From a virus: 25,481 bases of DNA. Shown piece by piece: positions 4,043-23,034 of the stretch. The position numbers and the translations under genes are program-made. Numbering within the stretch: the stretch's first letter is position 1; the number at the start of each line of letters is the position of its first letter. The notes beneath the pieces are model-generated. The model saw nothing but the letters and a program-made list of their open reading frames with translations. It ran no database searches and was not told the DNA's origin. The DNA is taken from the IMG/VR virus record IMGVR_UViG_3300005098_000446, one strand, 5' to 3'.

Positions 4043-4328
4043 CCGCCTCCATCATCTGGAACTCCTCGATGAGCTTGATCGGCAGGCGGCGAAGACAGAG
4101 CGAGAGAGCCGCACCGCACGGAAGCGGGAGATCAATGCAGAGCGGAAGACGATCCGGGTCCGGCAGGAAGGAGCATTGTATGTGCTAGCGGAAGATATCA
4201 CTGACCCGATCAAGTGGAACGCTCTCATCCGTGCTGGTCTGCTCTACAGGTTACCGGGTAATGTGTGGGGCGTGCGGGTTATCGCCGCGAGTTCACAGGG
4301 ATACGATGTAGTGGAGATGGCGCCGTGA
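4008..4328 (+). CDS. Hypothetical protein, paralogue of 6896-7246
   Basis: Shared LAE.I.D..KWN.LI..GL.YR....W.VR motif; probable start MEAEER within ORF 3957-4328. Confidence 0.65.
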   Translation: MEAEERLIGLSDRLHHLELLDELDRQAAKTERESRTARKREINAERKTIRVRQEGALYVLAEDITDPIKWNALIRAGLLYRLPGNVWGVRVIAASSQGYDVVEMAP

Positions 4329-4696
4329 CGACAAAACCCGAAATCGTCGATAAGATCATCCGGCTATACCGTGATGAAGGGTTGACTATGGCGGAGATAG
4401 CTGCGGAATGCGGTGTCGCGGAACCCACTGTCCGCAGACACCTCCACAAGAGCGGTGTTGAAATCCGCCACCAACAAACCCCGTGGTCAGAAGAAGAGAA
4501 AAATCGCCTCGTTGATCTGGTCAGCGCTGGTCTCAGTGACAGAGAGATGACTTCGTATTTTCCAAATCGCACCCATTCCTCAATCCGGCAGATGAAGGGA
4601 AGGCTGCGAATATGGAGGAGGGTCCAGCGAAACCGCACTATCCAACCTGATGACCCCACCGGACAGCGGCACGACGACAGTGCCGTGACCCGGTGA
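4325..4696 (+). CDS. HTH plus Myb/SANT-like DNA-binding protein
   Basis: GLTMAEIAAECGVAEPTVRRHL (HTH); PWSEEEK...FPNRTHSSIR (Myb-like). GTG start overlaps the previous stop. Confidence 0.75.
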   Translation: MTTKPEIVDKIIRLYRDEGLTMAEIAAECGVAEPTVRRHLHKSGVEIRHQQTPWSEEEKNRLVDLVSAGLSDREMTSYFPNRTHSSIRQMKGRLRIWRRVQRNRTIQPDDPTGQRHDDSAVTR

Positions 4697-4859
4697 ACCA
4701 TTTTTATCGACCGCCAATTTAGAATCGATATGAGCGACGATCTCACAACCTGTCCATATTGGGATATGTGACAGCGAGAAAAAATCGATTCTACAAAAAC
4801 CGACATGCGGCGGCGTGAAATTTGTGACGCTGCCACATGCTGTCAGCAGCGGGGTCAGG

Positions 4860-4982
4860 TCAGTTGCCGTCCGGTTCTTTTCTCATCCTCAGCAGCATCC
4901 CATAGATTTTCGCTGGGTTGTTCTCGATCTCGGCGATGGCTTCTGACATGGGTATGTCGAGCAGTTCGTCGAATGTATACAT
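4860..4982 (-). CDS. Hypothetical 40-aa protein (not in ORF track)
   Basis: MYTFDELLDIPMSEAIAEIENNPAKIYGMLLRMRKEPDGN; amphipathic and protein-like, AGGA upstream. Confidence 0.45.
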   Translation of the reverse strand: MYTFDELLDIPMSEAIAEIENNPAKIYGMLLRMRKEPDGN

Positions 4983-5012
4983 GTGGTCATCCTGGGGAGT
5001 AACGCCGAGAGA

Positions 5013-5400
5013 AAGTGGTGTGCCCCGCAGTTGCCACTTGTGTTTCGTCGCTGGTGCACCGGCGACAGGTATCGACCAACCTATGTAAGACTACGAGGTC
5101 TCTCGGCATGACATCATCTCTACTACACAGTCTTAAAAAAGTTGTGGTAGAGGGATCGCCTGTCCTCCCGGAGATCCGCGCCGATTCGCTGGGTCTATTG
5201 CGCATAGCTTGCACCCAACTATGCTTTGGGCAGCGCGATCGGCTGTTGCCGGTATCGCACAGGGATTTTCACCCTGGTTTTCCCCTCAGGGCTATGTTTT
5301 TCACCAGCAGAGACACGGGGACGTTTGGCGATCCCTTTTGATGTGGTGGGATTGCAACAGATGAAATCTCATTAGAGACCTCGGTGACGTGAGATGATGT
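5013..5400. ncRNA. Candidate structured non-coding RNA of unknown class
   Basis: At least 8 complementary stems found by eye (e.g. 5151-5160/5327-5336 perfect 10 bp; 5047-5054/5059-5066; 5086-5092/5129-5135). No credible ORF. Confidence 0.55.
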
Positions 5401-5634
5401 GTGTTACCCATATATATTTCTTTCGCCGAAACGTTTATGTACAGCACGTACACACCACACACCACATACCATATAGGAGGTATTGAAACGAACGTATCAA
5501 AGACAATACACATGGATGTCAAAATATGGTCAGAGATCAGCCGGATCGCTGACAAGGACTTCGACGGCGATGTTAACGACGCTGTGGAGCATGTATGTAG
5601 GAATGGGCTTGATGTACTAAGGGATAAAAAATGA
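5401..5634 (+). CDS. RHH-like small protein (true start uncertain, downstream of 5401)
   Basis: SKTIHMDVKIWSEISRIADKDFDGDVNDAVEHVCRNGL; ATGA overlap with the next gene. Confidence 0.5.
   Translation: MLPIYISFAETFMYSTYTPHTTYHIGGIETNVSKTIHMDVKIWSEISRIADKDFDGDVNDAVEHVCRNGLDVLRDKK
5410..5440. promoter_or_regulatory. Divergent BRE-TATA promoter pair
   Basis: Minus strand CGAAAGAAATATATAT; plus strand CCGAAACGTTTATGT. Confidence 0.6.
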
Positions 5635-6311
5635 CGGGAATACCTGACGACCATAAAGAGGCTCTCTGGCAACTGTTTGATGCCGCAAAGCGTTTCAGAG
5701 AACAGATCGAGATATTCAGAGGGGAAGAGGTCGACATAGACTCGATCCTGCGGACTGTGATCTATGATGTAGATGGCGCGAACAATTCCCTGATCAGGGA
5801 GATGACCAGTGTGCTCTGGGAAATAGACGTCGTAAGGCGTGCACGACTGATTCGACAGGGGACTAAACTCGACAAAGCACTGAAGGAGCTCGGTGTCGAA
5901 GCGATGTATAGTATCGTGGATTTAGACGATACACTGAACTCACGGGTCAAATGCGTCATGGTCAGATACCCGGCAGAAGAGATCACACCAAAGGATGTGA
6001 GAAGCAGGGTGGAGACGGCGAAAAAATCAGCTATCGCATTGGACCCGATGGGTATTATATATGCTTCAAACCTGAAACACTGTCTTGAAGAGCAAGGATT
6101 ATATGGCGTTGCACTGCAAGATATGCGCGATAAGAGATTCGACTGGCTTCTCGCAGATGTCATATCGAAGGGCAGGCTGCTCACTCATGTGAGACGTGAA
6201 GAGGGTCTTCCCAGACGAATGCCGAAAGAGAAGAAGACGGATAAAAAGGAGGTTTTCTCATGGAGAAAGTTGAGGAACAGAAGACTGAGGACGGTGCACA
6301 AGGGACGGTAA
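5631..6311 (+). CDS. Hypothetical protein
   Basis: 226-aa ORF with natural composition, in operon context. Confidence 0.7.
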   Translation: MTGIPDDHKEALWQLFDAAKRFREQIEIFRGEEVDIDSILRTVIYDVDGANNSLIREMTSVLWEIDVVRRARLIRQGTKLDKALKELGVEAMYSIVDLDDTLNSRVKCVMVRYPAEEITPKDVRSRVETAKKSAIALDPMGIIYASNLKHCLEEQGLYGVALQDMRDKRFDWLLADVISKGRLLTHVRREEGLPRRMPKEKKTDKKEVFSWRKLRNRRLRTVHKGR

Positions 6312-10743: not shown

Positions 10744-10800
10744 GAAAGGTTTATATACAAGTTACATCGATGATGATGATGGTGATATCATTATCACCAT
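10744..10800 (+). promoter_or_regulatory. Promoter plus inverted repeat
   Basis: GAAAGGTTTATATA (10744-10757); ATGGTGATA-N4-TATCACCAT (10779-10800). Confidence 0.65.
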
Positions 10801-16190: not shown

Positions 16191-16232
16191 CGAAAGGTTT
16201 ATATATAACCTCATCACCATCAATGATGGTGA
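16191..16232 (+). promoter_or_regulatory. Promoter plus perfect palindrome
   Basis: CGAAAGGTTTATATATAA, then TCACCATCA-A-TGATGGTGA (16214-16232). Confidence 0.7.
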
Positions 16233-22920: not shown

Positions 22921-23034
22921 TCTTTTTATCCTCCTTTTGAGTTGTTACGGACTACAATCTGTCTTGGGGGTATATAAAGATGTGTGCGCCTTTGTCTGCT
23001 TTTGTCTGCTTTTGTCCGCCGTCCCGCGCGGCAG

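Follow-up and report, generated by a model that had tools for sequence, protein, structure and literature searches.

The question raised by this locus is whether the gene-free gap of approximately 530 bp between two small, divergently oriented open reading frames (ORFs) houses a functional RNA and, if so, on which strand and in how many pieces. A preliminary description had read positions 5013 to 5400 as a single novel structured RNA of about 390 nt, with most wobble pairs favoring the plus strand but the evident promoter facing the minus strand, and bearing two crossing 10-bp pairings that suggested a pseudoknot or a conformational switch.

In the window (the whole 25,481-nt stretch of viral DNA that was analyzed), the gap is bordered on the left by a minus-strand ORF at 4860-4982 and on the right by a plus-strand ORF at 5512-5634, the first of a long rightward operon. 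An HTH gene (4265-4696) lies about 300 nt to the left of the control region. The window further encodes two TnpB proteins, two DNA methylases, a dCMP deaminase, a sugar-polymer cassette, beta-helix/dockerin proteins, and an NrdD fragment. A gene for replication was not found. ARAGORN found no tRNA or tmRNA in the window, and the preliminary description had likewise noted no tRNA signature in the element. For a 226-aa protein encoded next to the element, the structure model is mediocre (pLDDT of 67) and has no fold match, and the protein atlas yielded no hit. A hairpin followed by T5 at 4681-4705 (plus strand), directly past the stop codon of the HTH gene, indicates where the upstream plus-strand operon ends, and the transcript of the small leftward ORF would terminate at T5/T6 runs of the minus strand (4795-4799 and 4779-4784). 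Two 77-aa ORFs called on the plus strand in public assemblies, 5108-5341 and 5401-5634, are probably spurious; the latter runs in the wrong frame across the promoter region and the real 40-aa ORF at 5512-5634.

Boxes of the TTTATATA type occur four times in the window versus 0.84 times expected (about fivefold enrichment), which is consistent with archaeal-type promoters in the element that the window represents. Because of this enrichment, the nonacidic proteins, and the relatives from seep and vent sediments described below, we read the window as probably belonging to an uncultivated, archaeal-type mobile element or virus. A halophile host was considered and dropped, given that the window proteins are not acidic overall and that the relatives are cold-seep metagenomic sequences.

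Distribution and nucleotide-level conservation

With the neighboring 226-aa protein and the spurious ORF inside the element as search handles, we obtained 14 metagenome contigs with the element. They represent three haplotypes, designated a (the window and L001-L005), b (L012-L014, L016, L019, and L021), and c (L006-L008). The relatives come from cold-seep and hydrothermal-sediment metagenomes (the source paper for one of the samples is PMC9357000), and more remote relatives of the neighboring gene (49% identity) lack the element. No DNA match was found in phage records or Escherichia coli genomes, and nothing related was found in IMG/VR (scanned with five DNA anchors and with the neighboring protein, alone and as a profile) or in GTDB genome contigs (DNA anchor and protein profile). 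A closing-stem pattern run against IMG/VR gave 28 hits, all of them chance matches. Besides chance 18-mers, the anchor scan of metagenomes yielded haplotype b copies only, at the same locus; the spurious ORF as a protein query likewise led to haplotype b contigs only, and a protein search with the 40-aa ORF returned no candidates. The distribution of the element is narrow. A MITE or other multicopy repeat (domain 1 with its 9-bp terminal inverted repeats) was rejected, as one copy is present in the window and at every locus fetched; an invertible segment was dropped on account of the same orientation in all 14 contigs, and a reading as an integration site was also rejected.

The haplotypes differ in their surroundings. 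Haplotype c carries a 310-bp insertion (L006:3483-3792) exactly at 5425|5426, between two back-to-back promoters. A plus-strand ORF in this insertion (from L006:3516) has a subthreshold match to the STAS-like DUF4325 (20.1 bits versus a cutoff of 23), and its expression in the plus direction may depend on the shared A/T box. Haplotype c also has an IS200/IS605-type insertion (L006:384-1960; TnpB on the minus strand, Y1 TnpA on the plus strand) immediately upstream of the HTH gene. The window has other genes at this position, and the left neighborhood is therefore mosaic between haplotypes.

Against a divergence of approximately 16% in the flanking genes between haplotypes a and c, none of the 104 positions in 5004-5107 and only about 4 of the 140 positions in 5179-5318 are changed, and 5396-5425 is identical in the two haplotypes. 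Variation is confined to 5108-5178, approximately 5313-5325, and 5346-5395. In haplotype b, diverged patches of about 21 to 24 nt lie on either side of 5004-5107.

Protein coding does not account for this pattern. The plus-strand ORF 5015/5108-5341 is open in all three haplotypes (112 to 143 codons from stop to stop), but its start is missing in haplotype b, and haplotype c is frameshifted twice, affecting about 14 internal codons and the C terminus. Conservation is equal across codon positions, and the changes in the core are three nonsynonymous to one synonymous. The product has no homologues outside the same locus. The called ORF is thus not kept at the protein level, and it is the nucleotide sequence on which selection acts; as judged from the haplotype comparison, the region is functional at that level and conserved far better than the adjoining genes. 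Conservation above that of the neighbors, the lack of a kept frame, and the pairing-respecting substitutions described below, drawn from only three haplotypes, lend modest support to a structured noncoding RNA, in keeping with the structured RNA first proposed.

The absence of known RNA signatures was also borne out: the whole window gave no Rfam 15 hit at gathering thresholds, and a permissive search over 4850-5550 reached at best 12 to 16 bits versus thresholds of 45 to 80. The element is thus new as a sequence family and a member of no known one.

Predicted units and their strand

The preliminary description treated the region as one RNA, and folding of 5013-5400 is indeed better than that of shuffled sequences, if only moderately (z scores of −2.41 on the plus strand and −3.00 on the minus strand). 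Most of the nested stems listed in it exist, namely, 5013-5020/5032-5039, 5047-5054/5059-5066, 5086-5092/5129-5135, 5141-5148/5351-5358, 5151-5160/5327-5336, and 5202-5207/5219-5224, whereas 5261-5266/5281-5286 is just one of several competing pairings among repeated words of the CAGGG/CCCTG type. The element nevertheless looks like two units, 5004-5107 and approximately 5135-5390, rather than a single 390-nt RNA. The features are compiled in Table 1.

Table 1. Coordinates of the features in and around the element
Feature	Position	Strand	Basis or remark
Small ORF, 40 aa (48 aa in haplotype b)	4860-4982	−	Gene callers, several contigs
Domain 1, invariant 104-nt module	5004-5107	−	Bounded exactly by the 9-bp stem 5004-5012/5099-5107
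Box X	5094-5103		Overlaps the 3′ strand of the domain 1 closing stem
Box Y (5111-5120) with extension	5111-5126		Inside the variable stretch 5108-5178
Conserved T6	5135-5140	−	Invariant inside a variable stretch
RNA1, predicted structured RNA of ~250 nt	5135-5390	−	Folding, SCI, substitution pattern
Domain 2: closing stem 5151-5160/5327-5336 (10 bp), helix 5176-5182/5312-5318, core 5179-5318	5151-5336	−	
Local hairpin 5375-5382/5363-5370, containing 8 nt of X′	5363-5382	−	Pairing across haplotypes
Box X′	5374-5383		Invariant island with variable flanks
Box Y′ (5391-5400) with spacer 5384-5390 (pairs with 5122-5126)	5384-5400		
P1: BRE-like CGAAAG (5425-5420) and A/T box (5419-5410)	5410-5425	−	Predicted archaeal-type promoter, read from sequence
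BRE/TATA-like promoter of the rightward operon	5427-5441	+	Putative, from its motifs
Exact TTTATATA boxes	209-216, 10750-10757, 16198-16205, 22971-22978		Window

For domain 1, the folding statistics point to the plus strand (z scores of −2.96 for the minus strand versus −3.95 for the plus strand), and several stems in 5013-5150 show G·U pairs only on that strand. The genomic context points the other way. A gap of 21 nt separates domain 1 from the small minus-strand ORF downstream of it. Core codons 7 to 30 of this ORF differ between haplotypes a and b by six synonymous and two nonsynonymous changes, and the counterpart of this ORF in haplotype b heads a two-gene leftward operon in which a basic 193-aa ORF follows on the same strand. 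Given the synonymous excess in the ORF 21 nt downstream and its leading position in the haplotype b operon, a minus-strand transcript is expected to traverse domain 1 or to begin at its edge. The 193-aa ORF (L012:46-627 and L019:2893-3474, both minus) is very basic (pI 11) and contains internal repeats; it has no Pfam match, and the window has no copy of it at this locus or elsewhere.

For 5135-5390, which we call RNA1, the evidence favors the minus strand, contrary to the wobble pairs cited in the preliminary description. The z score is −3.03 on the minus strand versus −1.08 on the plus strand, and the SCI is 0.96 versus 0.885. Read 5′ to 3′ on the minus strand, the predicted RNA would consist of a 5′ hairpin, a 10-bp closing stem, internal helices, a multibranched core (5187-5309), and a terminal U6, and this fold is the same in all three haplotypes, at −89 to −90 kcal/mol. 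Variable columns are scarcer among paired positions (11 of 128) than among unpaired ones (27 of 126). The plus strand carries T4, T4, T5, and T4 within 5266-5339 and lacks any A4 run in 5135-5390, so that in the minus sense no run of four or more U residues precedes the conserved U6 (5140-5135); the plus-sense genes show the reverse skew of A and T runs.

The substitutions separate the strands further. The local hairpin that includes part of X′ keeps all eight of its pairs on the minus strand in every haplotype versus six of eight on the plus strand, with two one-sided, wobble-compatible changes in haplotype c. In the domain 2 closing stem, the haplotype c change T5156C gives G·U on the minus strand and C·A on the plus strand. 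In the helix 5176-5182/5312-5318, the pair 5314/5180 shows compensation (G-C to A-U), and three further changes, U·G to C-G, pair in the minus sense only. Across hairpin, closing stem, and helix, one compensatory and six wobble-type changes thus pair on the minus strand and leave A·C mismatches on the plus strand, and the core changes (5245, 5253, and 5298) all lie in loops or a bulge. The minus-sense consensus as a whole has 98.8% of its cells paired and contains four double changes versus 1.3 in shuffles (3 of 500 reach four) and 0 to 3 in slid controls, although covariation from three sequences is thin and can be regarded as suggestive, no more.

The promoter context agrees with this orientation. 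The P1 box is invariant in all haplotypes and stays attached to the element despite the insertion in haplotype c, and the back-to-back promoter of the rightward operon is kept on the far side of that insertion. On the basis of the usual distance from TATA box to start site, P1 would start an RNA at approximately 5388-5390 on the minus strand. Because of the z scores, the SCI, the changes that pair in the minus sense only, the enrichment of variation in unpaired columns, the A/T-run skew, and the retention of P1, 5135-5390 is most likely transcribed from the minus strand. In the minus sense, the conserved T6 precedes the invariant sequence of domain 1 by 32 to 33 nt; it may terminate RNA1 in archaeal fashion, supply a TATA-like box for a start near 5107, or do both.

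Geometry and pairing of the crossing boxes

The crossing 10-nt pairs of the preliminary description were confirmed in position, order, and offset. X/X′ and Y/Y′ are perfect 10-nt inverted repeats with 270 nt between the arms of each, and their order (X, Y ... X′, Y′) cannot be nested. None of 2,000 dinucleotide-preserving shuffles of 4700-5800 contained two perfect 10-nt inverted repeats in parallel register, with a mean of 0.69 single 10-nt pairs per shuffle, and the arrangement is therefore nonrandom. X is unique in the window, also when one mismatch is tolerated; near-matches to Y are commoner than chance there, which may merely reflect codon usage.

X and X′ are invariant in all haplotypes and hence offer no variation in which covariation could appear. 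The predicted energy of the X:X′ duplex is −16.8 kcal/mol, that of the competing 9-bp stem of domain 1 is −15.9 kcal/mol, and that of the minus-sense hairpin containing X′ is −9.8 kcal/mol; forcing X:X′ in the minus sense costs 12 to 15 kcal/mol relative to the nested optimum.

Y and Y′ do vary. The helix extends to 5122-5126/5384-5390, and haplotype c shows compensatory double changes at 5116/5395, 5122/5390, 5123/5389, and 5126/5384. Random placement of the same substitutions gives at least four doubles with a P value of 0.0014, before correction for the choice of bulge. In haplotype b, however, 5111, 5114, and 5115 are mismatched without compensation, breaking 3 of 10 Y pairs. The proposed 10+10 pseudoknot thus fared unevenly: its Y helix carries four compensatory doubles, but the perfect Y stem is not kept in haplotype b and is therefore partly dispensable. 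Four of the haplotype c changes are also wobble compatible in a plus-sense hairpin (5383-5391/5400-5408) followed by a T-rich tail.

In the minus sense, both box pairs are equally distant from an A/T box. With a predicted start at about 5388-5390, Y′ would lie in the promoter and thus outside the minus-strand RNA, which leaves the compensations in the Y helix unexplained. On the plus strand, the four boxes share one RNA only if transcription passes four T runs. A true pseudoknot is therefore only one candidate, and a switch or an RNA-RNA contact in trans is equally possible.

A candidate RNA switch, its alternatives, and related systems

We hypothesize that 5004-5425 is the leftward, noncoding half of a divergent-promoter control region. 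The BRE/TATA motif at P1 would start an RNA of about 250 nt on the minus strand that folds into a 5′ hairpin holding X′ and a stem-closed multibranched domain and ends at U6. The downstream 104-nt leader domain (5107 to 5004) would hold X in its closing stem, with the small ORF 21 nt further on, and X′/X pairing would let the upstream RNA open that closing stem. RNA1 might act in trans as a small RNA in its own right or in cis at the 5′ end of a leader made by read-through, and either mode would constitute an RNA switch on the leftward unit; Y/Y′ would be a second contact, used only where transcripts span both boxes. In this account, the conservation, the lack of coding, the geometry of the boxes, and the substitutions compatible with structure are observed, whereas the promoters, the ends of the RNA, its strand, and its role in regulation are inferred. 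For this minus-strand unit, comprising promoter, RNA, leader domain, small ORF, and X′/X switch, we estimate a probability of roughly one-half.

A single plus-strand RNA of about 400 nt, running from approximately 5004 (or approximately 5111) to the T-rich tract past 5400 and forming X:X′ and Y:Y′ together, is a considerably less probable competitor. With the stem 5086-5092/5129-5135, it would form a three-way-junction pseudoknot or an alternating switch. It is the sole reading that places all four boxes in one transcript. The Y helix also speaks for it, closing the nested optimum of either strand as its outermost helix and carrying the compensatory doubles. The preference of domain 1 and the 5013-5150 stems for the plus strand also fits, the hairpin with its T-rich tail at 5383-5420 could terminate such a transcript, and TATA-like words lie about 30 nt upstream of both 5004 and 5111. 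However, the four T runs inside 5266-5339 are likely archaeal stop signals, the plus-strand z score of 5135-5390 is weak, and seven core substitutions break plus-sense pairs. Haplotype b, moreover, breaks 2 of the 7 pairs of the 5086 stem in addition to the three Y pairs and does not keep the upstream TATA-like word. Geometry also argues against simultaneous pairing: extension of the Y helix leaves no linker between X′ and Y′, and the 7-nt linker between X and Y presumably cannot span coaxially stacked helices.

Slightly less probable still is a purely DNA-level role, in which the boxes would be protein sites (e.g., for the neighboring HTH protein) equally far downstream of two same-strand A/T boxes, operators of two tandem promoters, or part of an origin, and conservation would reflect DNA recognition. 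Both sites share a minus-sense layout of A/T box, 9 to 10 nt, Y-type box, 7 nt, and X-type box; the X core is near-palindromic (GAG-N2-CTC); and the element lies between divergent promoters with the HTH gene close by on its left. The 10-mers, however, are inverted singly with their order kept, as expected of RNA pairing rather than of a rigid protein complex, and Y is not palindromic. The invariant blocks of 104 and 140 nt far exceed the length of an operator, strand-specific wobble-type substitutions are unexpected in duplex DNA sites, and no iterons or repeats were found.

The two weakest readings can be set aside briefly. The tie to TnpB #1 (142-1572) raised in the preliminary description found no support: a trans guide RNA with domain 1 as scaffold and a guide from 5108 directed against 5384-5400 would suit an invariant block followed by a haplotype-variable stretch complementary to a promoter-side site, but it is very improbable, as the first three bases past the block mismatch the target, pairing needs bulges, neither tnpB 3′ region in the window is similar, the element lies 3.4 kb from TnpB #1 rather than abutting a tnpB 3′ end, haplotype c has a different IS upstream, and haplotype b alters the supposed guide while the target is unchanged. 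Equally implausible is a small protein from 5015/5108-5341, a frame open in the three haplotypes and called as a gene in several contigs, since its start is not kept, it is frameshifted, its conservation is blind to codon position, and the product would be Cys/Arg rich with homologues at the same locus only.

The proposed minus-strand switch can be compared with several known systems. The c4 RNA of phages P1 and P7 and the CI RNA of P4 are antisense/immunity RNAs of temperate phages that use two short boxes complementary to sites in the same operon. By analogy, the element would be a small structured RNA in a control region, upstream of a small ORF, with boxes complementary further along the same unit and in the same order in regulator and target. 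Unlike those RNAs, it has no sequence or Rfam relation to them, its host is probably archaeal, and one box pair may fall outside the predicted transcript. The repY-repZ leaders of IncI-alpha and IncB plasmids control replication through a leader peptide and a long-range pseudoknot. The element would share with them a structured leader, a small ORF followed by a second one (in haplotype b), and long-range complementarity between a hairpin and a downstream site, but its distances are far larger and no replication gene accompanies it. Attenuators and riboswitch-like leaders likewise have a stem-closed conserved domain, then a U tract, and then a coding unit, although the element matches no known riboswitch class and offers no recognizable signature of a ligand pocket; in archaea, a U tract alone may terminate transcription, and the T/A box of the element could be a promoter instead. 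The omega RNA (reRNA) of TnpB shares the succession of an invariant structured block and a variable stretch, but the element is not beside a tnpB 3′ end and its seed positions are mismatched. The control logic thus resembles, by analogy, that of phage immunity RNAs and of plasmid leader/pseudoknot controls.

A broader proposal, which we advance only tentatively and regard as rather unlikely, is that the element is an RNA genetic switch of an archaeal virus or plasmid of methane-seep and vent sediments, in which two adjacent 10-nt boxes of the structured RNA would pair with two boxes where the neighboring unit starts, as a true long-range pseudoknot or in trans, and so balance the leftward and rightward operons. 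If true, it would be the archaeal equivalent of phage immunity RNAs and represent a new family of RNA. To our knowledge, hardly any regulatory RNAs have been described from archaeal viruses and plasmids, and none from uncultivated archaea of seeps and vents. The present candidate is compact and strongly conserved, its pairing boxes are explicit and open to mutation, and a divergent promoter pair lies next to it; in vitro tests would need no culture of the host. Should the pairing of the boxes prove functional, an archaeal mobile element would be shown to use switch logic based on RNA; otherwise, the element would still be a clean case of a new conserved structured noncoding element.
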